From the IMG/VR virus record IMGVR_UViG_3300027692_000003: 34,200 bases of DNA. One strand, written 5' to 3'. The notes below the pieces were generated by a model. The model did no database searches. It had not been told where the DNA came from and saw nothing but the letters and a program-made list of their open reading frames with translations. Both the position numbers and the translations under genes were made by a program. Positions 581-34,200 of the stretch are shown piece after piece. Positions within the stretch are counted from its first letter, which is position 1, and the number at the start of each line of letters is the position of its first letter. Source of the stretch: a virus (lineage: Duplodnaviria; Heunggongvirae; Uroviricota; Caudoviricetes).

Positions 581-1143
581 TCACCTACCAGACCGATGAC
601 CCGGACATCATCAGGGCATGGGCCGGTGTCCTGCGGGCGCTCGGCGATTACCGGTCGAGGATCCGGGCGCTGGCCGCAGGGGCGGGTGCGGGCCGGTCGG
701 AGGTGCTGTTCGCCGGGGAGTCCGGTCCGTTCCCCGGCAAGTGGACGGGTATCGATGTCCCGTCAGGGTGCCAGGTCCCGGCCGGGTGGATGCTGGGGGG
801 GAGCAGGCTCGCGGTCCTGGACCGGGCTAGTGACCCGGGGCGCCGTTACGCTGAAGGCTTCGACTCGGCACGGTACCCCCGCCCGCGGCATCACCTGCAT
901 GACCTCGGGATGCCGGTCAGTGTCCTCGGCCCTGGCGGCGTCCCGGTACCGACCTCGGTATCGTTCGGCGGCGGGGTCCTCCAGGTTCACTGGGGGACAC
1001 CAGGCGGGGACGGCCCGGATGAGGTGCCGGGCGTCGATGCCGTGCTGTGGCGGCGTCTGGACGGCGCTGCGGCTGCCGGGGCACCCCCCGCGGCTGCCGG
1101 GCATCTCCCTGCCGGCGTGGCAGTGTCAGGGGGGCCGCGGTGA
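577..1143 (+). CDS. hypothetical protein
   Basis: ATGA overlap with upstream stop and GTGA overlap with downstream gene. Confidence 0.6.
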   Translation: MITYQTDDPDIIRAWAGVLRALGDYRSRIRALAAGAGAGRSEVLFAGESGPFPGKWTGIDVPSGCQVPAGWMLGGSRLAVLDRASDPGRRYAEGFDSARYPRPRHHLHDLGMPVSVLGPGGVPVPTSVSFGGGVLQVHWGTPGGDGPDEVPGVDAVLWRRLDGAAAAGAPPAAAGHLPAGVAVSGGPR

Positions 1144-5799: not shown

Positions 5800-6168
5800 C
5801 GGGAGCAAGTGCGAGGCAATGGAGTTCATGAACGGCACCCCGTGCCCGGCTAAGGCGGCCGTGGCGCGTCCAGGTCGGCTTGCGGCAGACGGATGCGCAG
5901 CTGAGCTGCGGCCGGCATCTGAGCATGACGTGCGGTGCCATGTCCCAGGCAGAGGGGCGCGATGTGGCGCTCACCGTCACGGCGGTGAGGGGATGAGCGC
6001 GCCCTGCATCTATATGTCCCGGCCAGGCGCGGCACATGCGCCGCGGGCGGAGGCACCCGCCCCGCCCACGGGAGGCGCCCAGCGGGGCGGTACGACGGCG
6101 CGCCGCAAGCAGCTGGAGCGCGACATAGGCCGCCTTGAGGCCCTGCGCTCGCAGATTGAGGCGGCGCC

Positions 6169-6471
6169 GTGACACCCGCACCTGATCGCCGCCGGGCTGG
6201 TGACATCGTGACCGCCTTCGCTGACCGGTGCGTCCGGGTCTACTACAAGGGCAGTGACCTGGCCCACCTTCAGGGTCCTGACGGTGAGGTGGTGTGCCCG
6301 ATGGCGCCGCCGCTGTGCCGGGTGTGGCTGGGTACCGGCAACGTGCAGGAGGCGGCGCGGGCTGGACGTCTGGAGCTGTGCAGGGTCTGCGCGGCCCGGG
6401 CCGCCGCCGTAGACGCCGCCGGGACCGTTCCTGCCCCCGTCGCGGCGGCTGGCCCTGGAGGCACCCGGTGA
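6169..6471 (+). CDS. hypothetical protein (Cys-containing)
   Basis: GTGA coupling at both ends; WLGTG...LELCRVC. Confidence 0.5.
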   Translation: MTPAPDRRRAGDIVTAFADRCVRVYYKGSDLAHLQGPDGEVVCPMAPPLCRVWLGTGNVQEAARAGRLELCRVCAARAAAVDAAGTVPAPVAAAGPGGTR

Positions 6472-17657: not shown

Positions 17658-18072
17658 GCACCCGAACGACGCCCATCTCTGGGCGCAGCTCTGCAACGAG
17701 TTCCACGCCGCCGGCGCGGAGCCTGAGGCCCGGCAGCGTCACGCCCGCCGTGCGGTCGCCATCGTCCGCCGCGAGCGGGCCCGCGGCGGTGCCCGGACGT
17801 TCGGCCCCGGTGACGAGATCCCCTGCGACGTCTCCCGCGCCTATGACCTTGACGGCGACACATGGGAACGCCTGCCGGCCGATCCGGGCAGCACCGCGAA
17901 GGACATGTGGCGCATGCCCGGGTTCAGCCCCGCCGAGCACGAGAGCGCCGCGCGAGGCTGCTACGTCACTCCGCACCTGCTGGACGAGTACGGGCCGCTC
18001 ACCGAGATCCCAGCGCGGAAGAGGGCCACCAGATCACCGGCAGTACCTGCCTCGAGCGCGGCCAGCCGGTGA
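17650..18072 (+). CDS. phage hypothetical protein
   Basis: GGAGG RBS; DLDGDTW...LLDEYGPLTE motif typical of actinophage small proteins. Confidence 0.6.
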   Translation: MARHPNDAHLWAQLCNEFHAAGAEPEARQRHARRAVAIVRRERARGGARTFGPGDEIPCDVSRAYDLDGDTWERLPADPGSTAKDMWRMPGFSPAEHESAARGCYVTPHLLDEYGPLTEIPARKRATRSPAVPASSAASR

Positions 18073-18224
18073 CCATGGAAGGGATCGAGTGGGGCCGCTC
18101 CGACGCGTTCCTGGACGAGATCCCCGGCGCGTACAAGCCAGTGGAGCAGGTGATGGCGGACGCGGCGGACCTGGTGGAAATCAGGCACACGCTCCGGCAG
18201 ATCGTGAACGTCAAGGGTGACTAG
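18069..18224 (+). pseudogene. rtcB: C-terminal fragment of RtcB RNA ligase
   Basis: FLDEIPGAYKPVEQVMADAADLVEIRHTLRQIVNVKG matches the RtcB C-terminus (DE.P.AYK...VM....LV....L.Q...VKG); only about 50 aa present. Confidence 0.8.
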
Positions 18225-19095
18225 GCACCGCGGGGCGCACCGGTCCCCGGGGGTTCCGGTGCCGGGCACCGTCAGGGCCACGGCGATCCTGGCGGACGGC
18301 ATCGCGGCGGGGGACGTCAGCGGTGCCCTCGCCGAGCTCGCCCGGACGGCCCTGGAACAGTGCTTCCCGGAGCTCGCCGTCCTGCATGGTGTCCGCCAGG
18401 ATCCCCGGTGGCATCCTGAAGGGGACGTGTGGGTCCACTCGGGGCTTGCCGCCGATCAGGCGGCCCGCCTCGCGGCGGAGGCGGGGCTGGGCGGATGGGA
18501 TCAGGCGACGGTGGTCCTGGCTGCCCTCGTGCACGACTTCGGGAAAGCCGCCTCAACCCAGCGGGACGGCCGGGCATGGCGGCTGGCCCGGATCGTGCTG
18601 CGGCAGGACCGGTTCCGGATTACCTCCCATGGTCATGCCGGAGCCGGCACCGGCCCGGCCGCGGTGTTCCTGGACCGGATCGGCTGCCCGCCGCCTGTCA
18701 CCGGGCAGGTGATCCCGCTGGTCCGTGAGCACATGGCCTGTATCCAGCCCCCGACCAGGCATGCCGTCGCCCGGCTGGCCCGCAGGCTGGCCCCGGCGGC
18801 ACTGGAGCAGTGGGCCATCATGTGCGGCGCCGACCACGCAGGCCGCGGCGACCCGGACGCGCCGAACCCGGCCACGGCATGGCTGGCCCTCGCCAGCAGC
18901 TCTCCGCCAGCCGCGCCCGCAGTACGGGGGATCCTGACCGGTGACCACCTCATCGCCGCCGGCATGACCCCCGGTCCCGGGTTCCGGACGATCCTGGACG
19001 GCGCCGTGGCCGCCGAGCATGACGAGCTGTTCACCGACGAGGAAGGAGCCATCCGGTGGCTGAAGTATCGGCTGGGCCAGCAGGACCAGGCGTGA
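18217..19095 (+). CDS. HD-domain protein resembling the C-terminal half of CCA-adding enzyme
   Basis: FPEL, QDPRWHPEGDVWVH, ALVHDFGK, GH...G, LVREHM, ILTGDHLIAAGMTPGPGF; no N-terminal polymerase head. Confidence 0.8.
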   Translation: MTRHRGAHRSPGVPVPGTVRATAILADGIAAGDVSGALAELARTALEQCFPELAVLHGVRQDPRWHPEGDVWVHSGLAADQAARLAAEAGLGGWDQATVVLAALVHDFGKAASTQRDGRAWRLARIVLRQDRFRITSHGHAGAGTGPAAVFLDRIGCPPPVTGQVIPLVREHMACIQPPTRHAVARLARRLAPAALEQWAIMCGADHAGRGDPDAPNPATAWLALASSSPPAAPAVRGILTGDHLIAAGMTPGPGFRTILDGAVAAEHDELFTDEEGAIRWLKYRLGQQDQA

Positions 19096-19766
19096 CCGGA
19101 GTCCCGGGCACGATCCTGCTGGCCGGCATCACCGGCAGCCGTGCCTACGGCCTTGACCATCCCGGGTCCGACACGGACCGGCTGGGCGTGTTCGCGGCAC
19201 CGACGGCCAGCCTGGTCCGGATCACCCGGCCGCTGGCATCGGGGGAGACAGTACGGCCGGGGGACGACGAGCAGTACCACGAAGCCCGGAAATACCTCGC
19301 CCTGGCACTTAAGTGCAATCCCACCGCGACGGAGCTGGCCTGGCTCCCGGACAGCCTGATCGAGGTGCGGACCCCGCTGGGTGATGACCTGATCCTGATC
19401 CGGGAGACGTTCCTGTCCCGCACCCAGATCTCGGCGTCCTACCTGGACTATGCGCGGGCCCAGTACCGGCGCCTCAAGGGCAGTACCGGGCATCCACGGA
19501 CAGCGAAGCATGCCCGTCACCTTGCCAGGCTCCTGGTCCAGGGGCAGCAGCTGCACCGCGACGGGCGTCTTGCCCTGCGGCTGGAGGACCCGCAGTGGTT
19601 CCGTGACTTCGGGGACCGGGTGGCGGCCGGTGACCTCACCCTGTGCGAGATCCTCCTCTCCGAAGCGGAACAGGCATTCCGGAAGCCGTCGCCGCTGCCT
19701 GAGAACCCCGTCACCGACGCCGCCGAAGCATGGCTGTACCGGGTCAGGCGGGACCACTGGGAATAG
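19092..19766 (+). CDS. Pol-beta-fold nucleotidyltransferase (RlaP/YcgL-like)
   Basis: GTGA coupling; GSRAYGL..PGSDTD, LALKCNP, KHARHLARLL. Confidence 0.8.
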   Translation: MTGVPGTILLAGITGSRAYGLDHPGSDTDRLGVFAAPTASLVRITRPLASGETVRPGDDEQYHEARKYLALALKCNPTATELAWLPDSLIEVRTPLGDDLILIRETFLSRTQISASYLDYARAQYRRLKGSTGHPRTAKHARHLARLLVQGQQLHRDGRLALRLEDPQWFRDFGDRVAAGDLTLCEILLSEAEQAFRKPSPLPENPVTDAAEAWLYRVRRDHWE

Positions 19767-19788: not shown

Positions 19789-20175
19789 ATGGCGAAATAC
19801 GGCGATGCCCGCTGGCTCACCGAGCTACGCGCGATGGTCGCGCAGCGGCTGAAAGAGCAGAACACCACGCAGGTAGCCCTCGCCGAGCACCTCGGCATCA
19901 CCCCGAAGCACATGAACCAGTTCCTGCAAGGCACCGTCCTTGCGGGTAACCCGCTGCTGCTGGAACGCATGGCCGAAGCGGTGGGCCTCCGCATCACCAT
20001 CGCTGACTCGGGCCAGCCACCGCCACCGCTCCGCAAGCTGAGGCAGCGCCGGGCACAGGTCAAGGCACTCGCCGGCCTCGCGACCGCGAACGAAGAGGAC
20101 CTGGCCTACGTCCTGTCCGGCATCGATGGCGGGACCCGGGACCGGCTCAGGGCTTTGCTCGGCGGCGGGGAGTAA
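19789..20175 (+). CDS. XRE-family HTH regulator (probably leaderless)
   Basis: TTQVALAEHLGITPKHMNQFLQG; TAGGTT -10-like hexamer 7 nt before ATG. Confidence 0.8.
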   Translation: MAKYGDARWLTELRAMVAQRLKEQNTTQVALAEHLGITPKHMNQFLQGTVLAGNPLLLERMAEAVGLRITIADSGQPPPPLRKLRQRRAQVKALAGLATANEEDLAYVLSGIDGGTRDRLRALLGGGE

Positions 20176-20268
20176 GCGCTACCCGCCCCCGGCCAGTGCC
20201 ACCAGACCGGGGAATCGCGGGGCACCGGCCGGGCCGGCACGGTATCGTGTCCACCCGGGAAACAGGGG

Positions 20269-22023
20269 GTGAGGGCTGTCGAGACACGCATGATCCAGCA
20301 GGCGTACCGGTTCGCCCTGGACCCCACCCCCCGGCAGGAGCGCATGCTCCGCTCCCACGCCGGCGCGGCCCGGTTCGCCTACAACTGGGGCAACGCGCAG
20401 ATCATCGCGGCCCTCGACGCGCGCGAAGCGGAGAAAGCCGCCGGGACGGAACCGGGCACCCCGGTACCGTCCCACTTCGACCTGTGCAAGATGTGGACGG
20501 CATGGAAGGACGCCCACGCCGCCGACCCGGAACCGCCGGAGGGTGAGCGCCGGACGAGCACCGCGTGGGTCAGCGAGAACTTCGTCGGCACCTACCAGGC
20601 CGCCCTGCGGGACGCGGCGAAAGCCTGGTCTGACTACTTCAAGTCCGCGAGAGGCGAACGTAAAGGACGCCGACTCGGCCGGCCCAGGTTCAAGAAACGG
20701 GGCCGGGCCCGTGACTCTTTCCAGGTCCACGGCACCACCCTCCGTCCCGTCGCAGCATCTGGTGACGGCGTCGCGTTCCGTGCCCGCCACCTCAGCCCCG
20801 GCTCGCACCGGGACGTCATCGTCCTGCCGAAGATCGGGCCGATCCTCCTCCACGAGTCCGCCCGGAAACTGCGCCGCCGCCTCGGCAAAGGCGAGGTCCC
20901 GTGCCCGGAATGCTGCCAGGCCGGCGTCGTACCTGCCACGGGCAGCACGAGACGCAAGGATGAGGTGCCGTGCCCGGCCGGGATGCATGCGGGTGCCGGG
21001 TGCCTGGTGTGCGACGGCGGCGGCCGGGTCCGCCCGTGCCCGGCATGCGGCGGCAGGCTGGCTGTCCCGGCCGCCCGGATCATCCGGGGCACCGTCGCGA
21101 GGGACAGTGACGGCCGCTGGTATATCAGCCTGACCGCGGAGATCGCCCGCGAGGTCCGCACCCGCACCGTCAGGGAGGTCCAGCCGGCCGGGACCGTGAC
21201 CCGGACCGCGGTGCCGGCGCCGACGGCGCGGCAGCGTGCGGGCGGTGTCGTAGGGGCCGACTTCGGGGTCCGGGACATTGCTACCCTGTCCGACGGCACG
21301 GCGATCGCGAACCCGCGCCACCTCGAAGCGGCGCTCGGGAAACTGGCGAAGGCACAGCAGGAAGTGGCGCGGTGCGAGAAGGATTCGGCCGGTCGCCGCC
21401 AGGCTGCCGCGAGGGTGGGGCGGCTGCATGCCAGGGTGAAGCACCTGCGGCTCGACGCCCTGCACAAGGCCACAAGCACCCTGGTCCAGTCGCGGGCGGT
21501 CATCGCCGTGGAGGGTTTCGACGTGCAGGAGACGGCACGGTACCGCCGGGGCGGGAAGGTAGACCGCGGCAAGGCGGAAGGCCGGGAGAAAGTCCCCGGC
21601 AAGGTACGGCAGGCCAGGAACCGTGCCCTGGCCGACACCGGGATCGGGATCGCCCGGTGGCAGCTGCAGTCCAAGGGTGCCTGGTACGGATGCCAGGTCC
21701 TGGTGATGGATAAGCACGCGCCGACCGGGCGGACATGCTCGGCGTGCGGGACGGCGAAAGCCAAGCCGGTCCCGCCCGCGGAAGAGATGTTCACCTGCGA
21801 GGCTTGCGGGGGCGTGATGCCGCGGCGGGTGAATACTGCCCGTGCGCTCGCATCACGTGCCCGTGTGAGCGTGTCCGTCGCCCCGAGTACCGGGGAGACG
21901 CTAAACGCCCGTGGAGGTGATGTAAGACCTGCCGCGGCTCGCCGTGGCGGGCAGTCGCCGTTGAAGCGGGAAGCCAGCACCCGGCCACCTGGCCGGGGTG
22001 AGCCTGGCAGTCCTGGCGGCTAA
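20269..22023 (+). CDS. tnpB: IS200/IS605 TnpB-family protein, CRISPR-adjacent, RuvC-III Asp missing, with Zn-finger insertion
   Basis: AYRFALDPT..Q...L..HAGAARFAYNW; GRPRFKKR; GADFG (RuvC-I); AVEG (RuvC-II); CSACG..CEACG; PRRVNTA where DRD.NAA is expected; alternative start ATG 20290. Confidence 0.9.
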   Translation: MRAVETRMIQQAYRFALDPTPRQERMLRSHAGAARFAYNWGNAQIIAALDAREAEKAAGTEPGTPVPSHFDLCKMWTAWKDAHAADPEPPEGERRTSTAWVSENFVGTYQAALRDAAKAWSDYFKSARGERKGRRLGRPRFKKRGRARDSFQVHGTTLRPVAASGDGVAFRARHLSPGSHRDVIVLPKIGPILLHESARKLRRRLGKGEVPCPECCQAGVVPATGSTRRKDEVPCPAGMHAGAGCLVCDGGGRVRPCPACGGRLAVPAARIIRGTVARDSDGRWYISLTAEIAREVRTRTVREVQPAGTVTRTAVPAPTARQRAGGVVGADFGVRDIATLSDGTAIANPRHLEAALGKLAKAQQEVARCEKDSAGRRQAAARVGRLHARVKHLRLDALHKATSTLVQSRAVIAVEGFDVQETARYRRGGKVDRGKAEGREKVPGKVRQARNRALADTGIGIARWQLQSKGAWYGCQVLVMDKHAPTGRTCSACGTAKAKPVPPAEEMFTCEACGGVMPRRVNTARALASRARVSVSVAPSTGETLNARGGDVRPAAARRGGQSPLKREASTRPPGRGEPGSPGG

Positions 22024-22072
22024 CTGCCAGGCGTCCACGTAACCCTGCCCGGGAAGGGCTGCCTAACTCAAC
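21854..22072 (+). ncRNA. putative omegaRNA/tracrRNA-like scaffold overlapping tnpB 3' end (boundaries approximate)
   Basis: Series of hairpins (CCCCG/CGGGG, CCCGGCC/GGCCGGG, GCCTGGCAGT/ACTGCCAGGC); AGACGCTAAACGCCCGTGGAGG..GTAAGACC..TGAAGCGGGAA resembles actinobacterial TnpB tails; segments complementary to the array repeat. Confidence 0.55.
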
Positions 22073-22111
22073 AGTGGCAAGAGTGCCCTATAAGCATGCA
22101 GCTCAGGAAGA

Positions 22112-23118
22112 GTGCAGCCCGCGGGCAGGTGGACGGCGGAAGGGGTGGTTTTCCCGGGCTTGGCCTGGCTTGGTGCAGCCCGCGGGCAGGTGGGCGACGG
22201 TAGCTGAGCCACTTTACGATGCATACCGGTCTGGTGCAGCCCCTGGGCACGTGGGCGACGGACACCGTAAGAACGAACAGGCGTTCTGGTTCAAGTGCAG
22301 CCCCTGGGCACGTGGGCGACGGACAACGTACCCGCCGAGGACTGGGGGCATTGGCGTGCAGCCCCTGGGCACGTGGCGACGGGAAGCTCGGTCCGCGCAC
22401 AGCGTCGGCGCGTATGTGCAGCCCCTGGGCACGTGGGCGACGGATGATCTACGTCACTAACACGTCTCGGCGTGGTGTGCAGCCCCTGGGCACGTGGGCG
22501 ACGGTTAGGCGCTGCTCTACGACGCGGGAGCGATCCAGTGCAGCCCCTGGGCACGTGGGCGACGGTACTCTGAGCTGGCTTGCCGATAGCCAGGACGTGC
22601 AGCCCCTGGGCACGTGGGCGACGGTTAGGCGCTGCTCTACGACGCGGGAGCGATCCAGTGCAGCCCCTGGGCACGTGGGCGACGGCAGGTCGATCGTAAC
22701 CCAGCCCCGTGGTTGCTGGTGCAGCCCCTGGGCACGTGGGCACGTGGGCGACGGACAACGTACCCGCCGAAGACTGGGGGCATTGGCGTGCAGCCCCTGG
22801 GCACGTGGGCGACGGTAGATCCGGCTCACCTCTTCGGTGAGCTGCTGAGTGCAGCCCCTGGGCACGTGGGCGACGGTACTCTGAGCTGGCTTGCCGATAG
22901 CCAGGACGTGCAGCCCCTGGGCACGTGGGCGACGGGGAAATGGAGAAGCGCATCGCCGCCACCAACATGTGCAGCCCCTGGGCACGTGGGCGACGGATGA
23001 CTCTCAAGTCCTCTAGCTGCAATGATCACGTGCAGCCCCTGGGCACGTGGGCGACGGGCTTGTGAGACCGATGCCAACCTCGATGATCTCGTGCAGCCCC
23101 TGGGCACGTGGGCGGACC
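22112..23118 (+). CRISPR. CRISPR array 1: 17 repeats (GTGCAGCCCCTGGGCACGTGGGCGACGG, 28 bp), 16 spacers
   Basis: Repeats start 22112, 22173, 22234, 22295, 22356, 22416, 22477, 22538, 22597, 22658, 22719, 22788, 22849, 22908, 22969, 23030, 23091; spacers 33 bp (two of 31); first two and last repeats degenerate; strand inferred. Confidence 0.95.
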
Positions 23119-23285
23119 GGCCGGTGGGAACCCGCCGACTTCGGCGGGATTACCTTGATGCTCAGGCCTGGCCGGCGGTCCCCGAGCTGAGCCCTCCGGG
23201 CTTCGCTGACCCGGCACCGGTGCCGGCGCTAGGCTGACCTCATGTCCCTGACCACCGCTACCGCCGCGGCGGGGGGACCGGTACG

Positions 23286-23795
23286 GTGAGCCATGTCGTG
23301 AGGCACTGGTACCGGACCCTCTCCAGGCCCGCGATGCCGGCGTGGCAGTCGTCCTGCCGGGACTGCACCGCGGCCACACTGCTGCACCGGGCCAGGATCA
23401 CCGCAGTGACCGGCCTCGGGCTGGTCACCGCCGGGTATGCCGCGGCGATCGCCGCCTTGTGGCAGCCCCGTGACAGCGGCACCTGGTACGGCGCCGCTCA
23501 TGGCCTGACCCTGGCCGCGCTGGCCTGTTTCGTGTGCTTCGCCGGGATGACGGCCACGGCCAGGGGGCGGGCACGCAGCGTGGACCGTACCTGGCAGCCG
23601 CCCTGTACCGCTCCCGGGGCGCCTCGCAGCACGGACCTGGTGTTCTGGTGCATCTGCTGCAACGCCACCAGCCCCCATCCTGACGACATAGCGCACAGCT
23701 ACTGTGCACGCTGCCACTGGTTCGCTGCTGACCCGGAACCACCCGGCCGCGGTCACCTTGACCTGCCGTGCCCGGCACGGGAATACCGGCTGTGA
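23286..23795 (+). CDS. membrane protein
   Basis: Two hydrophobic helices; C-terminal CxxC..S.HPDD....YC.RCH. Confidence 0.5.
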   Translation: MSHVVRHWYRTLSRPAMPAWQSSCRDCTAATLLHRARITAVTGLGLVTAGYAAAIAALWQPRDSGTWYGAAHGLTLAALACFVCFAGMTATARGRARSVDRTWQPPCTAPGAPRSTDLVFWCICCNATSPHPDDIAHSYCARCHWFAADPEPPGRGHLDLPCPAREYRL

Positions 23796-24593: not shown

Positions 24594-24666
24594 AGGGGTA
24601 TAGCTCAGACGGCAGAGCGGTGGTCTCCAAAACCACAGGTCGCGGGTTCGAAGCCTGCTACCCCTG
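24594..24666 (+). tRNA. trnW: tRNA-Trp(CCA)
   Basis: AGGGGTA/TACCCCT acceptor; GTGGT-CTCCAAA-ACCAC; TTCGAAG T-loop. Confidence 0.92.
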
Positions 24667-24785
24667 CGAGCACCACCCTCCGGGGTGAACGTGCCTGGCA
24701 CTACTTGACATGTCCATAGCGTGAGCATCAACAGGCAGGCTGCCGAGCCTGCCGACGCCGTCGCGGCTCCGGCTGCGGCGGTCTC

Positions 24786-24859
24786 GGGCTGCTAGCTCCA
24801 ACTGGCAGAGCGACTCCCTTGCAAGGAGAAGGCTCTCGGTTCAAATCCGAGGCAGTCCA
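24786..24859 (+). tRNA. trnA: tRNA-Ala(TGC)
   Basis: G3:U70 pair; loop CTTGCAA. Confidence 0.9.
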
Positions 24860-24902
24860 CGCGCGTGAGGATTGCAGCTAAGAGCCGCATATCCTTGCAA
24901 AC

Positions 24903-25376
24903 ATGAACGAGCTGCCCGTGCCCACTAAGCACTGCAAGAAATGCGATCTGGACAAGCCGCTCGGCGATTTCCACAACAGCGCGCGGGCGAAAGATGGCAG
25001 GTGGGCCTACTGCAAGGGCTGCTCAAACGCCCGCGCGCTGGCCTGGTATCACGAGAACAAGGACTCGGCCGAGTACCGCGACTTCTCGTTCAGGCAGCGG
25101 CTCAAGCGGTACGGGATGACCGAAGAGGACTACGCGGCGCTCCTTGCAAGGCAGGGTGGCGGCTGCTCTGTGTGTGGCGTCGCCGAAGGACTGGTCATCG
25201 ACCACGACCACGGGTGCTGCCCATCGAAACGCGGATGCTGTGGCAAATGCGTCCGGGGTCTTCTCTGTCAGCGTTGCAACCGGGTCTTCGGGAACCTTGA
25301 AGACTCGGCTCAACTGGTGAGGGCACTGCTGAGATATGCGGAGTCCCCGCCTAACGGGATGTCGCGTAAGGGTTAG
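24903..25376 (+). CDS. endonuclease VII-like (HNH-superfamily) homing endonuclease
   Basis: LLARQGGGCSVC, IDHDH..C..CGKCVRGLLCQRCN; N-terminal CKKC..KPL.DF..CKGC; stop lies inside tRNA-Pro. Confidence 0.88.
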   Translation: MNELPVPTKHCKKCDLDKPLGDFHNSARAKDGRWAYCKGCSNARALAWYHENKDSAEYRDFSFRQRLKRYGMTEEDYAALLARQGGGCSVCGVAEGLVIDHDHGCCPSKRGCCGKCVRGLLCQRCNRVFGNLEDSAQLVRALLRYAESPPNGMSRKG

Positions 25377-25426
25377 CGCGCCTGGCCTGGGACCAGGCGG
25401 ACGGAGTTCGAGTCTCTGCTTCCCGA
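25355..25426 (+). tRNA. trnP: tRNA-Pro(TGG)
   Basis: CGGGA../..TCCCG acceptor; CCTGG-CCTGGGA-CCAGG. Confidence 0.8.
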
Positions 25427-25504
25427 CTGCAAGACTGCCCGCCTGGGGTAGATGCGGCGGACATTCGCGCCGTCGGCTGGCAGTTGAAGAAAAGCCCCCG
25501 GCAT

Positions 25505-25579
25505 GCCTCCTTAGCTCAGTCCGGCAAGAGCGCTCGGTTGAAACCCGAGAGGTCCTCCGTTCGACTCGGAGAGGAGGAA
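25505..25579 (+). tRNA. trnF: tRNA-Phe(GAA)
   Basis: CTCGG-TTGAAAC-CCGAG; 1:72 mismatch. Confidence 0.85.
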
Positions 25580-25583
25580 CCGT

Positions 25584-25657
25584 GCCCTGCAAGCATTGCG
25601 GCGATGCGCCAGTCCTCCAAACTGGTGAGCGGAGTTCAATTCTCCGGTGGGGCTCCA
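25584..25657 (+). tRNA. trnG: tRNA-Gly(TCC)
   Basis: CCAGT-CCTCCAA-ACTGG; ends TCCA. Confidence 0.85.
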
Positions 25658-25658
25658 T

Positions 25659-25730
25659 GCGCCGCTAGCTCAGCGGTAGAGCAGGTGACTCTTAATCACT
25701 TGGCCGGGGGTTCGATCCCCTCGCGGCGCA
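25659..25730 (+). tRNA. trnK: tRNA-Lys(CTT)
   Basis: GCGCCGC/GCGGCGC; loop CTCTTAA. Confidence 0.92.
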
Positions 25731-25733
25731 CGC

Positions 25734-25807
25734 GGGCGAGTACGTCCAACGGCAGAGCGGCCGGGCTCAAACCTCGGTAGTTGCGGGTCCGAATCCCGCC
25801 TCGCCTA
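25734..25807 (+). tRNA. trnL: tRNA-Leu(CAA), short variable arm
   Basis: GGGCGAG/CTCGCCT; CCGGG-CTCAAAC-CTCGG; T-loop TCCGAAT. Confidence 0.7.
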
Positions 25808-25812
25808 CTCGA

Positions 25813-25886
25813 TGGCCATTAGGAGAATTGGCAGATCCGCCGGGCCCTGGACCCGGAGCTTCCTGGTTCGAGGCCAGGATGGCAGG
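25813..25886 (+). tRNA. trnQ: tRNA-Gln(CTG), 3' end probably damaged
   Basis: CCGGG-CCCTGGA-CCCGG; acceptor TGGCCAT/ATGGCAG with mismatch. Confidence 0.7.
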
Positions 25887-25938
25887 AGGCACCAGCATGA
25901 GGGGCTGGGCAGTGTGCGTTCGAGTCGCACCGGGGACA
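25881..25938 (+). pseudogene. tRNA-Leu(GAG) remnant lacking 5' acceptor strand
   Basis: CCAGC-ATGAGGG-GCTGG arm, GTGCG-TTCGAGT-CGCAC T arm, CGGGGACA end; no pairing 5' strand. Confidence 0.65.
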
Positions 25939-25942
25939 CGAT

Positions 25943-26010
25943 GCCCTTCGGGCCGGCGCCCGCGCGCCCCTTGTAAGGGTGCTGGCCCAGTTCGACCCTG
26001 GGGAAGGGCT
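25943..26010 (+). tRNA. trnT: tRNA-Thr(TGT), atypical D-arm
   Basis: GCCCTTC/GAAGGGC; GCGCCC-CTTGTAA-GGGTGC; CCCAG-TTCGACC-CTGGG. Confidence 0.7.
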
Positions 26011-26015
26011 CTTGA

Positions 26016-26088
26016 TGGGCAGTAGCTCAACTGGCAGAGCTGCGGTTTTTGGTGCCGCCGGTTTCAGGTTCGAACCCTGATTGCCCAG
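26016..26088 (+). tRNA. trnQ: tRNA-Gln(TTG)
   Basis: TGGGCAG/TTGCCCA; GCGGT-TTTTGGT-GCCGC. Confidence 0.88.
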
Positions 26089-26098
26089 CGTTTTCAGT

Positions 26099-26167
26099 GC
26101 CCTTCGGACCGGCGTCCACGCGTCCTTGGTATGGACGCGTCGCCCGGCTCGGCACCGGGGAAGGGCT
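26099..26167 (+). tRNA. trnT: tRNA-Thr(GGT), atypical D-arm
   Basis: GCCCTTC/GAAGGGC; GCGTCC-TTGGTAT-GGACGC; divergent T-loop CTCGGCA. Confidence 0.65.
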
Positions 26168-26171
26168 CTAT

Positions 26172-26242
26172 GCGGATGTGGTGTAGTGGCAGCTCATCAC
26201 CTTGCCATGGTGAAAGTCCGGGTTCGATTCCCGGTATCCGCT
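26172..26242 (+). tRNA. trnG: tRNA-Gly(GCC)
   Basis: GCGGATG/TATCCGC; TCACC-TTGCCAT-GGTGA. Confidence 0.88.
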
Positions 26243-26246
26243 CCGA

Positions 26247-26319
26247 GCCGTCCTAGCCCAATGGCAGAGGCACCGCGTTCAGGGCGCGGGTGTTCAGGGT
26301 TCGAATCCCTGGGACGGTA
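26247..26319 (+). tRNA. trnL: tRNA-Leu(CAG), short variable arm
   Basis: GCCGTCC/GGACGGT; CCGCG-TTCAGGG-CGCGG. Confidence 0.85.
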
Positions 26320-26324
26320 CGCAT

Positions 26325-26405
26325 GGAAGGTGAACCGGCCAGGGGCCGGGCTCCGTTGCTAGCGGATGCGCAGGGAACTGTGGCTTTCGAGTAGTCCGCC
26401 TTCCG
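26325..26405 (+). tRNA. trnS: tRNA-Ser(GCT), 8/4 fold
   Basis: GGAAGGTG/CGCCTTCC; loop TTGCTAG; long V arm; T stem GGCT/AGTC. Confidence 0.75.
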
Positions 26406-26447
26406 CTTGACGCCCGGCGGCGTCATGATCACCCGGATGATCCGCAT

Positions 26448-26532
26448 GGAGAGTTCGCCTAGCGGTCTATGGCGCCTCGCCGGAAACGAGGAGGGGAAAC
26501 CCGCGCAGGTTCGAATCCTGCACTCTCCGCCA
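26448..26532 (+). tRNA. trnS: tRNA-Ser(GGA)
   Basis: GGAGAGT/ACTCTCC-GCCA; CCTCG-CCGGAAA-CGAGG; V arm. Confidence 0.88.
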
Positions 26533-26570
26533 TCTCCCGTTTGTTCACACCGGACGAGAGAGCCGAACCT

Positions 26571-26596
26571 GGAAAGTGAACCGGCAAGGTGGCCGG
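26571..26596 (+). pseudogene. 5' fragment of a Ser-type tRNA truncated at the HNH gene
   Basis: GGAAAGTGAACCGGCAAGGTGGCCGG resembles the tRNA-Ser(GCT) 5' end GGAAGGTGAACCGGCCAGGGGCCGG. Confidence 0.55.
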
Positions 26597-26613
26597 ATGG
26601 CGTAAAATGAGTT

Positions 26614-27465
26614 ATGCGGAGTTTCAGCGATTGTACAGATTCCGAGTTTGCTGAAGCCGTTCCGATATCAGCTTCAATCGCAGAAGTGTCCAGGAAGCTC
26701 GGCCTACGCGGTAGCGGTAGTAACCACGTAAAGATATCGGATAAAATACGGTCCCTCGGGCTAGATACAGCTCATTTTACCAGTCGCGGCAAGAGATACA
26801 CCGACTCTGACAGCGACCTAGTCCTACTAAAGACATGTACCAAATGCCAACAGCGGAAACCGCTGAAGGACTTTCGAAGGTGCGCAGCGGCTAGAGATGG
26901 ACGTCGGCCGTCTTGCAGATCCTGCCTTAATAAGCACAATCAAATAATGGGCAAGCCCAATCTTTGCGCCTGCGGGAATCCCAAAACTAAGGTCGCCTTT
27001 CAGTGCGCCGAGTGCGCGAAGCGAAAACCAGAGTGGCGCATTAATAAGGACGGCTATGTCATCAAAACTGTCGACGGCAGGCAGATCTCTCAGCATCGGG
27101 AGGTCATGGAGCAACACCTTGGCCGTCCGCTGCAGCAACACGAAAACGTGCACCACAAGAACGGTCAGCGACAGGACAACCGGATTGAGAACCTTGAACT
27201 GTGGTCCTCATCTCAGCCTTCCGGGCAGCGAGTAGAGGACAAGCTAGCCTGGGCGAGATGGTTCATGGCACAGTACGGCGACTTGGAGAGCGTGCAGCCG
27301 GCGCTGCGGCCGGCTTCGAACGTCGGTAGCGGGTTAACGCCCGCGGGGCTCGACACCTCCGCTCTCCTCCATGGATGGCGCCTCGCCGGCGCGGGAACGG
27401 GCCTTGAAAGTCCGTGGCGGCTCAGGCCGTGGGGATCGACACCTCCGTCATCCGCGGGCATGTAG
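26614..27465 (+). CDS. HNH homing endonuclease; 3' tail reads through two tRNA genes
   Basis: QHREVMEQHLGRPL..HENVHHKNG.RQDNRIENLELW; visibly lower GC than flanks. Confidence 0.9.
   Translation: MRSFSDCTDSEFAEAVPISASIAEVSRKLGLRGSGSNHVKISDKIRSLGLDTAHFTSRGKRYTDSDSDLVLLKTCTKCQQRKPLKDFRRCAAARDGRRPSCRSCLNKHNQIMGKPNLCACGNPKTKVAFQCAECAKRKPEWRINKDGYVIKTVDGRQISQHREVMEQHLGRPLQQHENVHHKNGQRQDNRIENLELWSSSQPSGQRVEDKLAWARWFMAQYGDLESVQPALRPASNVGSGLTPAGLDTSALLHGWRLAGAGTGLESPWRLRPWGSTPPSSAGM
27285..27371 (+). tRNA. trnS: tRNA-Ser(CGA), 8/4 fold
   Basis: GGAGAGCG/CGCTCTCC-TCCA; loop TTCGAAC; V arm GCGGG/CCCGC. Confidence 0.7.
27373..27454 (+). tRNA. trnS: tRNA-Ser(TGA), 8/4 fold
   Basis: GGATGGCG/CGTCATCC; CGGGC-CTTGAAA-GTCCG; V arm. 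Confidence 0.72.
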
Positions 27466-27532
27466 CTCAGCAGGTCGGAGCAGCTCCCTGATAAGGAGAA
27501 GGACAGAGGTTCAAATCCTCTCTTGCCCACCA
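27456..27532 (+). tRNA. trnI: tRNA-Ile(GAT)
   Basis: Loop CTGATAA; ends ACCA. Confidence 0.9.
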
Positions 27533-27533
27533 T

Positions 27534-27608
27534 GGCGGCGTAGCTCAGCCGGTCAGAGCGCCGGACTCATAATCCGTGAGGCCGAAGGTTCAAATCCTTC
27601 CGTCGCTA
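27534..27608 (+). tRNA. trnM: tRNA-Met(CAT), elongator-type (Ile2 not excluded)
   Basis: GGCGGCG/CGTCGCT; loop CTCATAA. Confidence 0.88.
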
Positions 27609-27667
27609 CCGCAGGAAACGAGGAAAGAGATCACTATGCTGCGAAAACAGGTTCTGCCGATACCCAT

Positions 27668-27740
27668 GGGCCGCTAGCTCAACGGTCAGAGCGGGTGACT
27701 TTTAATCACACGGTTCAGGGTTCAATTCCCTGGCGGCCTA
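27668..27740 (+). tRNA. trnK: tRNA-Lys(TTT)
   Basis: GGGCCGC/GCGGCCT; loop CTTTTAA. Confidence 0.92.
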
Positions 27741-27751
27741 CGATCAGGAAT

Positions 27752-27825
27752 GCCCCGGTAGCTTAACCGGACAGAGCACGCGCCTTCTAAGCGCGGTGGT
27801 GCGCGTTCGAGTCGCGCACGGGGCA
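27752..27825 (+). tRNA. trnR: tRNA-Arg(TCT)
   Basis: CGCGC-CTTCTAA-GCGCG. Confidence 0.9.
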
Positions 27826-27928
27826 CGTGGTGGCCGAGGCACACCGGCTGGGTGGTATGCCAGCTACTGGCCCGGAACGGTTTAGGCAGGCGCGCGCCCC
27901 GCTGGCACTGGGGCGCACACCACACAAT

Positions 27929-28001
27929 GCTCCGTTGGAGTAGCGGATATCTCGCCAGGCTCTCAACCTGGAGATTGCCAGTTCAACCCTGGCACGGAGC
28001 A
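27929..28001 (+). tRNA. trnE: tRNA-Glu(CTC)
   Basis: GCTCCGT/ACGGAGC; CCAGG-CTCTCAA-CCTGG. Confidence 0.88.
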
Positions 28002-28114
28002 CTGCCCGAGTCGCGGGCCTAACGCCCGCGAGCCGAGGCGGCCGGCGCAGCCGACCAACCGCCCTGGCCTGTGCCGCGACGATCGGAAGCGGCACGCGAA
28101 GTCCGGGGCGGCAT

Positions 28115-28186
28115 GGCCCTATCGTCCATGGGTGAGGATCCGGGTTTTTCACACCCGGGAGCAGGGTTCGAGTCCCTGTAGGGCTA
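28115..28186 (+). tRNA. trnE: tRNA-Glu(TTC)
   Basis: GGCCCTA/TAGGGCT; CCGGGT-TTTTCAC-ACCCGG. Confidence 0.85.
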
Positions 28187-28187
28187 C

Positions 28188-28263
28188 TGCGGAGTAGAGG
28201 AGTCCGGTCGTCCTCAGCGGCCCCATAAGCCGAGAATCGCGGGTTCGAATCCCGCCTCCGCGA
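28188..28263 (+). tRNA. trnM: tRNA-Met(CAT), initiator-like
   Basis: TGCGGAG/CTCCGCG with weak 1:72 pair; GAGG/CCTC D stem; loop CCCATAA; lacks the full GGG/CCC anticodon stem. Confidence 0.75.
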
Positions 28264-28316
28264 CGAAGGCCCGCCGCGCGCCAGGACCGGTTTGGACGGC
28301 GAAGCGCGGTACTTAA

Positions 28317-28390
28317 TCTCGCGTGGTCTAACCAGGCAGGACGGCGGACTGTTAATCCGTATGGTGAAGGTTCGAATCCTTCCGCGAGAG
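28317..28390 (+). tRNA. trnN: tRNA-Asn(GTT)
   Basis: TCTCGCG/CGCGAGA; loop CTGTTAA. Confidence 0.9.
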
Positions 28391-28394
28391 CCGT

Positions 28395-28470
28395 GGTCTC
28401 TTAGCTCAATCGGGAGAGCGCCAGGTTGTCAACCTGGGGGCAGCGGGATCGAAACCCGCAGGGACCGCCA
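28395..28470 (+). tRNA. trnD: tRNA-Asp(GTC)
   Basis: CCAGG-TTGTCAA-CCTGG; ends GCCA. Confidence 0.9.
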
Positions 28471-28471
28471 A

Positions 28472-28544
28472 GCGCCCATCGTCTAAAGGACCAGGGCAGC
28501 GGCCTACGGAGCCGCTAATGGGGGTTCGACTCCTCCTGGGCGCG
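28472..28544 (+). tRNA. trnR: tRNA-Arg(ACG)
   Basis: GCGCCCA/TGGGCGC; loop CTACGGA. Confidence 0.9.
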
Positions 28545-28549
28545 CGTGA

Positions 28550-28621
28550 CGATCAGTAGCTCAGCGGCAGAGCAGCAGTCCTACAAACTGCGGTGCGGGA
28601 GTTCGAGTCTCTCCTGATCGA
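28550..28621 (+). tRNA. trnV: tRNA-Val(TAC)
   Basis: CGATCAG/CTGATCG; GCAGT-CCTACAA-ACTGC. Confidence 0.88.
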
Positions 28622-28622
28622 C

Positions 28623-28700
28623 GGTGGCCGAATCCAAAGCGGCCGAGGAGCCGGCCTGTGGAGCCGGTACGAGCGGGTTCGAGTCCCGCCGGTCACCCCA
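28623..28700 (+). tRNA. trnH: tRNA-His(GTG)
   Basis: G-1:C73; loop CTGTGGA; ends CCCA. Confidence 0.9.
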
Positions 28701-28701
28701 T

Positions 28702-28786
28702 GCGTCGGTGGCAGAGCGGTAATGCAGCGGCCTGTAAAGCCGCGGTCCTTGTGGCATCGGTGGTTCGATCCCATCTCGGCGCACCA
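28702..28786 (+). tRNA. trnY: tRNA-Tyr(GTA)
   Basis: Loop CTGTAAA; long V arm; ends ACCA. Confidence 0.9.
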
Positions 28787-28787
28787 G

Positions 28788-28861
28788 GCTTCCGTAGTGC
28801 AACGGAAAGGCACGGCCGCCTCCGGAGCGGCAGGCAGCAGGTTCGACTCCTGCCGGAAGCG
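28788..28861 (+). tRNA. trnR: tRNA-Arg(CCG)
   Basis: GCTTCCG/CGGAAGC; loop CTCCGGA. Confidence 0.9.
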
Positions 28862-28865
28862 CTAT

Positions 28866-28937
28866 GACGCACGTCTCGCTGGTGCGGGAGGCGGTCTGCA
28901 AAACCGTCGCGGCCCGGTTCGACTCCGGGGTGCGTCT
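28866..28937 (+). tRNA. trnC: tRNA-Cys(GCA), atypical D-arm
   Basis: GACGCAC/GTGCGTC-T; loop CTGCAAA; D arm TCTCGC-TGGT-GCGGGA. Confidence 0.8.
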
Positions 28938-28941
28938 TCAT

Positions 28942-29013
28942 CGGCCCGTGGTCCAGAGGACAGGACGGCGGCCTCCTAAGCTGTAAGCGCGGGTTCAAGT
29001 CCCGCCGGGCCGA
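28942..29013 (+). tRNA. trnR: tRNA-Arg(CCT)
   Basis: CGGCCCG/CGGGCCG; loop CTCCTAA. Confidence 0.88.
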
Positions 29014-29069
29014 CTGTGATGCTCACGCCATGGGGCATGGACCAGGTGTTTTAACGTCGCCGTCCCCGG

Positions 29070-31236: not shown

Positions 31237-33261
31237 ATGCCCGTCACCGCCCTGCCCGACGGAACCATCAGCACCGCCCGGTACGCAGCCCGCGGACCCG
31301 TCCCCGCCCCCGTCACCGAGGAACTCCGCCTCGGGAACTGGCTGGACAACCTCCTCACCGAGTACGAGCTGGACTACGAGGCCGCGAAAGCCGCCGCGTG
31401 GGAGGAAGACCCGCACGTCGCCCTCCTCCTCGCCGCCGTCACCGCAGCAGAGCAGGCATGGCAGGCTGCCCGTGACGAGTCCGCGGCCTGCAAGCAGAAA
31501 CTCGGCTACGCGAAGAGGACCGGTACCCCGGCCCGGATCGCCGCCGCGAAGGCTGCCGCGGCGCAGGCACAGCAGGCGTACCGGGCCGCGGTGAAGGCCC
31601 GGCAGGAAGCAGCAGCTGCCCTGCGGGACATCAAGGGCCTCCGCTGGCATGTCGCCAAGGCGGCGATCAATGCTGCCGCTGAGGAACGGGACCGGAAGAT
31701 CGCCGCGACCTACGGCCCGTACCGGGACCGGGGCGGCTACTGGGCGAACTGGGCTGAGCACGCGAAACATCACAAGACGGCCGCGAAACGGGTCCGGGAC
31801 ATGCGGAAACAGGGGCAGCCAGCCCAGCTGCGGTACCACCGGTTCGACGGGACCGGTACCGTCGTCGTCCAGATCCAGCGGGAACTCGGTGTCACCCCCG
31901 AGATCCGCGCCCAGGTCACCGCCCTGAAAGCAGCGGGCCGCACCCCGGGGCAGATAAAGGCGGAGACCGGGGTCAGGGCGATGACCGCCGCGAAGATGAA
32001 ACCCGAAGGCGCGGTCAAGGAAGGGGATCCGCCGTGCACCGCCGCTGCCCTCGCCGACGAGACGGGGAAGTGGCGGTCCTCGGTACGGCTCACCCCCGAG
32101 CTGCCGGCCGGGTTCGAGGAGCTGCCCCGCGGGGAGCGGCGCCGGATCGCCAGCCAGGGCATGTTCGCGATCCGCACCGGCTCCGCGGCGAACCTGGCGG
32201 TGAGTGTCGTCCCCGTCACTGTCCACCGGCGGATGCGCGGCGACGGCGACGTCAAGTACGCGAAGCTGACCGTCACCAGGAACGGCCCCGACAAGGACAT
32301 GTCCGTATCGCTGACCCAGCGTGTCCCCGCCCCCCAGCCGCGGGCCGGAGGGCGGCTGGTGTGCGTCCACGCCGGATGGCGGGCACTCCCCGACGGGTCC
32401 CTGCGGGTAGCGGTCATCTCCGGGGCCGGCCCCCTCACCCCGGGCCTCGCCGCACCGGGCGGCCGGGACGCCAGGGCTGGGGAACTCACCGGTGTCGTCC
32501 GTGACCTCGGGGACGGCTGCCATGAGGTTGTCATCCCGGCACGGTGGCGGGACCAGGACGCGGCGACCGCGAAAACCCGGTCCGTCCGGGACCTCGCCAG
32601 GGACACGGCGATCGCGGCGGCGGCAGACTGGCTCGCCGCAAGTCCCCGGTACGAGACGACGGACGGGGAGCCCCTCCCGGCCGCGCATGAGGTCCGGCGG
32701 TGGCAGTCACCGGGACGGCTCGCGGTCCTGGGGCAGCGGGCCGCACGCGGGGACTACGGCGACGACGCCGCCGGCCTCGGCGAGCTCATCGCCGGCTGGG
32801 CTGTACCTGACCTGGAGGCGTGGCGGCGGGAAGCCCGGGGACGCAGGCACCTGACCCGGCGCCGGGATGATGCGTGGGCGAACGTCGCCGCGTGGCTGTG
32901 CACCGGCACGAGGGAGGTCCGTGTCGATGAGTGGGATATCCGGGCCGTGACCCGCCGCCCGGGGCCGGGGGAGACTGATGACCCGCAGGCTGCGGCGGCC
33001 CGCGCGAACCGTACCCTCGCCGCCCCCGGGGCTCTGCGCCAGCGGCTCACCATCACCGCTGTCCTCGCCGGGGTGACTGTTACTGTCCTCGACCCCCCTG
33101 ATGCCGGTTCGGTCCTGCAGGTCCATGCGGGGTGCGGCGGGGTACTCGACCGCGACGCACGCAGGGAATCCATTGTCGTGCAGTGCCCTGGGTGCGGCGC
33201 GAGAGTTGACCAGGACGTGAACATGGTGCGGCTGATGGCTGCGCGCCAGCCGTCCGCCTGA
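31237..33261 (+). CDS. cas12m: Cas12m (type V-M / V-U1) nuclease-inactive effector
   Basis: YWANW..HHKTA.KR, LRYHRFDGTGT..VQIQR, LADE.GK, VHAGWR (His at RuvC-I), WQSP.R, RRDD, AAPGALR, C..C..DQD, as recalled from Mycolicibacterium Cas12m; adjacent 36-bp array. Confidence 0.88.
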   Translation: MPVTALPDGTISTARYAARGPVPAPVTEELRLGNWLDNLLTEYELDYEAAKAAAWEEDPHVALLLAAVTAAEQAWQAARDESAACKQKLGYAKRTGTPARIAAAKAAAAQAQQAYRAAVKARQEAAAALRDIKGLRWHVAKAAINAAAEERDRKIAATYGPYRDRGGYWANWAEHAKHHKTAAKRVRDMRKQGQPAQLRYHRFDGTGTVVVQIQRELGVTPEIRAQVTALKAAGRTPGQIKAETGVRAMTAAKMKPEGAVKEGDPPCTAAALADETGKWRSSVRLTPELPAGFEELPRGERRRIASQGMFAIRTGSAANLAVSVVPVTVHRRMRGDGDVKYAKLTVTRNGPDKDMSVSLTQRVPAPQPRAGGRLVCVHAGWRALPDGSLRVAVISGAGPLTPGLAAPGGRDARAGELTGVVRDLGDGCHEVVIPARWRDQDAATAKTRSVRDLARDTAIAAAADWLAASPRYETTDGEPLPAAHEVRRWQSPGRLAVLGQRAARGDYGDDAAGLGELIAGWAVPDLEAWRREARGRRHLTRRRDDAWANVAAWLCTGTREVRVDEWDIRAVTRRPGPGETDDPQAAAARANRTLAAPGALRQRLTITAVLAGVTVTVLDPPDAGSVLQVHAGCGGVLDRDARRESIVVQCPGCGARVDQDVNMVRLMAARQPSA

Positions 33262-33585: not shown

Positions 33586-34200
33586 GTCGAAACGCCAGCT
33601 CAGGGCGACGGTTTCTGAGACGCCTCGCTCGGGCTGAACCCCGACGTGGATGAGTTCACCGCGTCGAAACGCCAGCTCAGGGCGACGGTTTCTGAGACCC
33701 TATCGGCACGCGTGGCCGCCAACGCCGACGGCTCGTCGAAACGCCAGCTCAGGGCGACGGTTTCTGAGACCTCCTGGCCACCGCCGCGCCCGTCATCTCG
33801 CTGCTCGTGTCGAAACGCCAGCTCAGGGCGACGGTTTCTGAGACCCTGCGCTCCATGTCCTCGGTTGGGTCGACCACGCGCGGCGTCGAAACGCCAGCTC
33901 AGGGCGACGGTTTCTGAGACATACGGATGTTGCGGATGTAGCCCCTTTGGACCGCCTGTCGAAACGCCAGCTCAGGGCGACGGTTTCTGAGACGTCTGAG
34001 CCGGGCCGTTCGTGCCTGCCAGTTACCGCGTCGAAACGCCAGCTCAGGGCGACGGTTTCTGAGACTCTGAGCTGAACCTCAAGCGCGTCGCAGCGCGGCA
34101 CCGTCGAAACGCCAGCTCAGGGCGACGGTTTCTGAGACGGCCCCCACGGCATCCGCGTCAACGCGATCTCGCCAGGGGTGTCGAAACGCCAGCTCAGGGC
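33586..34200 (+). CRISPR. CRISPR array 2: repeat GTCGAAACGCCAGCTCAGGGCGACGGTTTCTGAGAC (36 bp), 8 full plus 1 truncated repeat, 8 spacers of 36-41 bp; continues beyond window
   Basis: Identical repeats start 33586, 33663, 33735, 33809, 33885, 33958, 34030, 34103, 34180. Confidence 0.97.

Follow-up and report, generated by a model that had tools for sequence, protein, structure and literature searches.

We analysed a stretch of 34,200 nucleotides (nt) from a virus record assigned to Caudoviricetes (IMG/VR IMGVR_UViG_3300027692_000003), referred to here as the window, in which an open reading frame (ORF) of the TnpB family is followed by a CRISPR array. The ORF, 584 amino acids in length, contains the Pfam domains HTH_OrfB_IS605, OrfB_IS605 and Cas12f1-like_TNB; it is recorded as protein P0002, which starts at the ATG at 20290 and comprises 577 residues (the numbering used throughout), and the longest contig bearing P0002 is 165 kb. 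The array begins 88 nt beyond the effector stop codon and holds 16 spacers (14 of 33 nt and two of 31 nt), with 14 distinct sequences among them. Scans of the 173 window ORFs of at least 80 amino acids, covering 34 with Pfam and 30 with PHROGs, revealed no tnpA, cas1 or cas2, and no cas3, Cascade or cas1-cas2 operon beside the array. Within that scope the arrangement described in an earlier note on this DNA, a TnpB gene ending 88 bp before a 17-repeat array and lacking tnpA, cas1 and cas2, is borne out. The same note regarded the locus as a candidate new system that had arisen recently and independently from an IS605-type TnpB. The system is neither new nor recent: its sequence is already catalogued as Cas12n, and the effector is a variant of the Cas12n lineage (type V-U4/V-N), not a typical Cas12n nuclease. 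Coordinates of the locus are collected in Table 1.

Table 1. Features of the effector locus, from the gene to the end of the array (window positions)
Feature	Position	Strand	Remarks
Cas12n-lineage effector gene	20269..22023	+	last ~48 residues form a disordered tail overlapping the tracr region
Insertion with four CxxC motifs, between WED strands	20899..21048 (approximate)	+	variable in the branch
RuvC-I Asp324	21259..21261	+	kept in 116/116
RuvC-II Glu408 in altered motif EG[FW]D	21511..21522	+	Glu408 in 116/116
Glu499	21784..21786	+	Glu/Asp in 109/116
Arg513, replacing the RuvC-III catalytic Asp	21826..21828	+	116/116
tracr stem 1	21876..21900	+	loop AGT (21886-21888), putative pseudoknot partner of the last repeat bases ACG(G)
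Rest of the omegaRNA-derived tracr scaffold	21901..22031	+	last hairpin 22003-22031
Core anti-repeat CGTCCAC, 7 nt	22032..22038	+	pairs with repeat positions 18-24
Small hairpin	22039..22071	+	possibly a lineage-specific anti-repeat extension
Array leader	22072..22111	+	its end resembles that of the GCAGGTC leaders found in relatives and canonical Cas12n loci
CRISPR array	22112..23118	+	17 repeats of 28 nt, period mostly 61

Identity and phylogenetic position of the effector

A published inventory of Cas12n already includes the window protein. Supplementary Data 1 of Fu et al. 2025 (PMC12216341) lists 138 Cas12n homologs collected by PSI-BLAST, so that membership reflects similarity, and its entry "Cas12n_2518", given a length of 578, is by eye the window protein over the 400 residues shown. 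The motif YQAALRDA, typical of the branch described below, occurs in 15 of 141 rows of that table. The best solved relative of the effector is RdCas12n (9J09), and its best PADLOC profile is Cas12u4 (E 7.7e-103, 343 bits), with no match to Cas12u1. An array-less TnpB reaches 361 bits on the Cas12u4 profile, and this score was dropped as a criterion of membership. Among transposon profiles the best was the IS607-type NF038280 (253 bits, below its cut-off of 350); both element-specific NCBIfam models fell under their cut-offs, and the nearest transposon family is IS607, not the IS605 previously assigned. The AlphaFold model has a mean predicted local distance difference test score (pLDDT) of 80.6, with values under 50 in the tail (530-577) and low confidence in the lid (413-449). 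We file the protein as a Cas12n-lineage variant because its triad (D324, E408, R513) is not the intact D-E-D.

Of 120 homologs listed, 116 have Arg at the position of the RuvC-III Asp and four have Asp. An IQ-TREE analysis of 59 selected rows and 384 columns, from which the RuvC-III motif was removed, placed the 15 Arg-bearing rows in a single clade (support 100/99), here termed the Arg branch; a 96-row quick tree agreed, and the outgroup does not form a clean side of one branch (one row misplaced). Homologs in the Arg branch share 45-81% identity with the window protein. Sister to this branch (100/99) are four RuvC-III-intact proteins known from protein sequence alone (P0092, P0098, P0102, P0112), and the combined group has as its sister L265, an intact, array-bearing protein (98/90). 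The group that includes L265 is in turn sister to 14 Ac-like and Rd-like Cas12n proteins (100/99), with joint support of 100/99; outside this joint clade lie IS607 TnpBs with transposases and other array-less actinobacterial TnpBs. The locus does encode a TnpB-derived type V effector, but the phylogeny does not support a separate, recent origin for it, since the protein groups with active array-bearing Cas12n and the branch is too diverse to be recent. A single origin of the link to an array is the simplest reading, and a separate but old origin may also account for the tree.

A predicted guide RNA divided between scaffold and repeat

The RNA layout is likewise that of Cas12n. The core anti-repeat forms 7/7 pairs with the repeat of its own locus in nine of ten loci (5/7 in L123), even though the repeats differ between loci, and permutation among loci gave p 0.0009 with G-U pairs allowed and 0.0001 with Watson-Crick pairs only, values not corrected for relatedness. 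The scaffold that precedes it matches Rfam RF03015 (Transposase-2 RNA) at 21963-22035. With the scaffold present and a 7-nt anti-repeat that co-varies, the proposal that an omegaRNA has been split into a tracr part within the ORF end and a part carried by the repeat is well founded. L343, whose protein matches the printed AcCas12n, agrees with the window in stem 1, the last hairpin, the 7-nt anti-repeat, the leader and the 61-nt period.

The three complementary segments on which the earlier note had based its pairing scheme are all present, at 21854-21862, 21875-21883 and 22032-22062, and they fare differently. Two 9-mer complements within 226 nt arise by chance in 1.5% of shuffles and were found in 2 of 144 other window tiles. 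The segment CCGTCGCCC (21875-21883), thought to pair with the 3' end of the repeat, is the 5' strand of stem 1, an internal and conserved stem, and co-varies with its own 3' strand: the stem pairs are CGTC/GACG in the window and L001 and CGAC/GTCG in L004, L040, L043 and L123, and the repeat end is constant (GACGG). Against the repeat it makes only 3-8 of 9 pairs in nine relatives. An identical stem strand is present in array-less TnpBs and in a canonical Cas12n locus with a different repeat end. At the position of CACGTGCCC (21854-21862) pairing is not conserved, the nine relatives showing 1-7 of 9 Watson-Crick pairs. A co-fold of CCGTC with the repeat end was rejected, as it depends on the first bases of spacer 3. 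Of the bulged anti-repeat drawn across 22032-22062, the core CGTCCAC stands, as described above; relatives do not preserve the register of the extension, and the one in L003 is set in a different register. The duplex including the extension reaches -39 kcal/mol in the window (shuffle p 0.004-0.006), and the extension at 22039-22071 may be real, though without support from co-variation.

In RdCas12n the last scaffold bases form a three-base pseudoknot that extends stem 1 (PMC12216341). Comparison by eye shows the stem-1 loop and the repeat end shifting together in intact loci, with loop/repeat-end combinations of GAT/ATC in L343, GGT/ACC in L200-L201, GAC/GTC in L203-L204 and ACT/AGG in L265. 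The corresponding window combination, AGT/ACG, offers two pairs and an A-G mismatch, as do IS607 omegaRNAs (AGT loop, AACGG end); the AGT loop is not kept in L003, L044 and L124.

The array and its distribution

Arrays of at least three repeats lie just downstream of the effector gene in nine of 13 distinct branch loci; a further locus shows one repeat only, at the end of its contig, and for three no array was called. Homologs of the effector keep arrays, with repeats that differ between loci. None of the RuvC-III-intact TnpB loci compared, many of them short contigs, has such an array. Repeats of some relatives are degenerate, and a degenerate search with the repeat pattern retrieved no other viral contig. 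In the window, repeats 1 and 2 are variant copies, repeat 5 is one base short, 8 nt are duplicated in repeat 11, and the 3' end of repeat 17 is decayed. Spacers 7 and 9 are identical, as are 8 and 13, and spacers 4 and 11 are one base apart, duplications that point to recombination within the array. We take the array geometry, with its 61-nt period, to be type I-E-like.

An altered RuvC site

The branch departs from other Cas12n proteins at several positions of the nuclease domain (Table 1); the loss of the RuvC-III Asp was overlooked in the earlier note. Gly409 is present in all 116 homologs. Asp411 occurs in 103 and is replaced by Asn in the other 13; the four intact sisters likewise have Asn there. 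Arg occupies position 499 in those four sisters and in 138 of 140 distinct RuvC-III-intact ORFs. The lid region has been replaced; Cys503 of the zinc finger is found in 103 of 116 homologs, indicating partial erosion of the cysteines; and the insertion has four CxxC motifs in six of 116 homologs and none in 73. Residue changes fixed across 116 proteins point to selection and not to decay. L258 and L352, two Ac-clade Cas12n relatives, read "RHENST" at RuvC-III and are accompanied by no more than one degenerate repeat; theirs may be a second, separate change of the active site.

Published precedents point in two directions. The IS607 TnpB ISFba1 no longer cleaves once its RuvC-III Asp is lost (PMC11061315), and Cas12m proteins keep D-E-D, H-D-D or N-D-D motifs yet do not cut (PMC11013384), so that a conserved triad does not show activity; both precedents favour a protein that binds. 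On the other hand, several TnpB branches with conserved RuvC-III rearrangements are argued to have remained active (PMC10691335), which favours a rewired nuclease, and an Arg from the zinc-finger region sits in the active site of Cas12f (PMC8053092). According to a 2026 preprint, 18 of 34 Cas12n proteins assayed were active; inactive members are not discussed in the main text of PMC12216341. No description of the active site of the Arg branch was found in the literature searched, which included parts of PMC11748809 and PMC12721324; the branch could already be covered in the Mol Cell 2023 Cas12n paper, in the TranC paper, in figures of PMC10691335 or PMC12216341, or in the 2026 preprint's supplement, all outside that search.

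Spacer targets

Evidence of phage targeting by the branch comes from one good case. L041, a member of the branch in genome G001, is found on a contig of 133 kb that carries genes for portal, capsid, ParA, FtsK and integrase, and spacer 5 of its 12 spacers matches (33/33) a second G001 contig of 36 kb with capsid and tail-tube genes. The protospacer is preceded by GGGAA (AA|G) and, by eye, falls on the coding strand, close to where a short ORF begins. This site (L235 783-815; G001:C42) is on a prophage-like contig and overlaps the start of that ORF, which has two CxxC motifs. G001 also contains two type I-E cas1 genes, on other contigs. Among 56 spacers from eight relatives, 36 begin with G. 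The array of the intact L343 also has near-perfect matches in its own assembly (L355 = G091:C14 and L354 = G091:C12), one of them behind AA|G with two distal mismatches.

Searches with the window spacers gave six weak matches and no convincing target among plasmids, four partial matches (82-91%), none convincing, among 401 genomes of the family of G001, and no match in five related records.

Proposed function and alternative explanations

We propose that the locus encodes a Cas12n-lineage CRISPR effector with its own array, carried by a likely actinobacterial phage, that would bind and silence the DNA of rival phages instead of cutting it; as a prediction from sequence, this is a reading whose chances of being right and wrong we consider about equal. 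A transcript through the end of the ORF would provide a tracrRNA (trans-activating CRISPR RNA) that pairs with each CRISPR RNA (crRNA) at repeat positions 18-24, and the stem-1 loop would form a short pseudoknot with the end of the repeat, so that two pieces restore the fold of the IS607 omegaRNA. Spacers may be supplied in trans by a host type I-E Cas1-Cas2, as suggested by the 33-nt spacers, the 61-nt period and the AA|G flank. From the register of loop and repeat end we infer that the guide would start at spacer base 1 and that the protospacer-adjacent motif (PAM) would be 5'-AA directly beside the target, one base shifted from the AAG of AcCas12n. The complex would then sit on its target as a roadblock, as Cas12m does. 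That the protein does not cut is suggested by the Asp-to-Arg change in 116/116 homologs, the ISFba1 precedent, the loss of a nearly fixed Arg at position 499 and the replaced lid. Use against phages is suggested by the protospacer of L041 and the type I-E cas1 genes of its genome, by the first base G of most relatives' spacers, by the viral contigs that carry five further branch loci and by a Cas12m-like binder in the same window.

Several observations weigh against this proposal. The invariance of Asp324 and Glu408 in 116 proteins, together with new acidic positions at 411 and 499, fits a rearranged site that still works, and single-residue changes have formerly been misread as marks of dead proteins (TldR preprint; PMC10691335). 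Window spacers start with G in only 3 of 16 cases, mostly beginning with A or T, and matched phage records twice and weakly (E >= 1), giving no convincing target; for the arrays of L040, L043 or L003, no self-match turned up in their own records. Controls with RuvC-III-intact Cas12n gave three resident matches in two genomes (33/34 and 34/34 without AA, 31/33 with AA|G), and because intact proteins also coexist with their matches, co-residence with a target is weak evidence for the absence of cutting. The strongest competitor, which we consider somewhat less probable than binding yet a serious prospect, keeps the same system and gives it a rewired active site: Glu499 or Asp411 would serve as third carboxylate, Arg513 would bind phosphate, and the enzyme would still cut or nick invading DNA. 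In its favour, the two changes mirror each other (position 513 goes from Asp to Arg, position 499 from Arg to Glu/Asp) and Asp324 and Glu408 are retained in all 116 homologs; it also accords with the activity argued for RuvC-III rearrangements in several TnpB branches (PMC10691335) and with the Arg of Cas12f (PMC8053092), should the latter correspond to position 499. It is harder to reconcile with the retention of triad motifs by the non-cutting Cas12m (PMC11013384), with Asn replacing Asp411 in 13 of 116 homologs, with the partial erosion of the zinc-finger cysteines (Cys503 in 103/116) and with the perfect resident target behind AA|G for spacer 5 of L041. Two further explanations set the Cas12n assignment or the array aside. 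A recent TnpB-to-Cas12 transition apart from Cas12n would fit a branch that is sister to, and not within, the Ac and Rd clade, whose repeat keeps the ACGG end and AGT loop of IS607 omegaRNAs where Ac-like loci changed both, and whose four intact sisters are known as proteins only; it is improbable given that the protein is already listed as Cas12n, that the intact, array-bearing L265 is basal to the branch (98/90), that the anti-repeat position, leader and period are shared with Ac- and Rd-like loci, and that identities of 45-81% do not describe a recent group. Least probable is a decaying TnpB stranded beside an unrelated type I-E array, with complementarity by chance. The I-E-like period, the three of 13 branch loci with no array called and the degenerate repeats of some relatives would suit it; arrays occupying the same place in 9/13 loci, with differing repeats each tracked by the local anti-repeat, residue changes fixed in 116 proteins, and a repeat pattern found on no other viral contig speak against it.

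More broadly, and with confidence falling a little short of even, sequence comparison suggests that more than 100 phage-borne Cas12n-lineage effectors may have had their RuvC site rebuilt by a reciprocal swap of Asp/Arg and Arg/Glu. The outcome would be a new catalytic arrangement or else a Cas12 repressor that depends on a tracr, has a two-base AA PAM and naturally does not cut, and it would be deployed in conflicts among large actinobacterial phages. As a new TnpB-to-Cas12 transition the locus is without significance, the system being catalogued Cas12n. If the branch does not cut, it would represent a further independent route from TnpB-like nuclease to RNA-guided repressor, with tracrRNA and array, and a source of natural DNA binders of ~490 amino acids with a predicted short, A-rich PAM; if it cuts, its RuvC arrangement is one not described in the literature searched.

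Genomic context and a second type V system

The window is likely part of a large actinobacterial phage. Its other genes include WhiB, helicase, HNH and endonuclease VII (Pfam/PHROGs), and no virion gene was seen within the window itself; the branch loci L001, L003, L004, L005 and L006 are on viral contigs of 29-160 kb. A consensus scan for promoters and terminators over 20000-23400 found nothing. Upstream of the effector, at 17862-19766, are an RtcB-like fragment, an HD-domain ORF and an RlaP-family nucleotidyltransferase, possibly an RNA-repair module. A cluster of 32 tRNA genes (24594-29014) is interrupted by the endonuclease VII (24903-25376) and HNH (26614-27465) genes, and a 1072-residue helicase with repeated HA domains (1047-4265) resembles one on the G001 contig bearing L041. 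In L003 a short reading frame (6080-6421) follows the array directly and precedes a tyrosine-recombinase-like ORF; by eye it is like what we take to be the start of a type I-E Cas1.

A second, Cas12m-like effector of 674 amino acids (31237-33261, +) lies 9 kb from the Cas12n-lineage locus. It matches PADLOC Cas12u1 (E 2.4e-80), has 8PM4 and 8HHL as best solved relatives and bears His at the RuvC-I position. Its own array (33586-34200), with at least nine repeats of 36 nt, runs past the window end. As a query it found no match in four related viral records or in G001. The element carries two type V effectors, both probably non-cutting.

Comparison with known systems

The locus shares with Cas12n (AcCas12n; RdCas12n, 9J09; PMC12216341) a tracrRNA that, as predicted here from the sequence and the model, overlaps a disordered C-terminal tail, as well as the 7-nt anti-repeat after the last hairpin, a predicted loop pseudoknot, an array of 61-nt period, the absence of adaptation genes and residence on actinobacterial mobile elements. 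It differs in the RuvC-III Asp-to-Arg and zinc-finger-region Arg-to-Glu changes, in EG[FW]D in place of EDLN, in a replaced lid and an optional CxxC insertion, in its position on a third branch, to which the Ac and Rd clades are sister, and in a repeat ending in ACGG with a probable one-base shift of guide start and PAM. To IS607 TnpBs and their omegaRNAs (RAGATH-18 / Transposase-2 RNAs) it is linked by the scaffold stems, the AGT loop and the 3' end ACGG; here, by contrast, tracr and repeat each hold part of the last stem, an array supplies the guides, the triad is altered and no transposase was found among the scanned ORFs. Array-less relatives have a closing stem and an AACGG end where the window has an anti-repeat and array.

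Cas12m (type V-M) is similarly a compact, TnpB-derived effector on mobile elements, one that protects by binding and not by cutting, the mode of action proposed here; it belongs to another lineage and uses a single-crRNA guide, whereas a co-varying anti-repeat is present in our locus. TldRs (TnpB-like nuclease-dead repressors) likewise derive from TnpB with changes in RuvC, act as repressors through RNA-guided binding and are in some cases carried by prophages; as described in the TldR preprint, they were mined by at least two triad changes and use one fused guide RNA, compared with one change and a CRISPR array here. In TranC systems, too, a TnpB-like effector is accompanied by an array and by a right-end RNA that has been split. 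In the 2026 preprint, TranC clades 3, 9, 11 and 20 are described with repeats of 32-38 bp, which sets them apart from the 28-nt repeats here, and the novel subtypes are described as lacking the Cas12n-type unstructured tail holding the tracrRNA, a tail that is present in the window effector.

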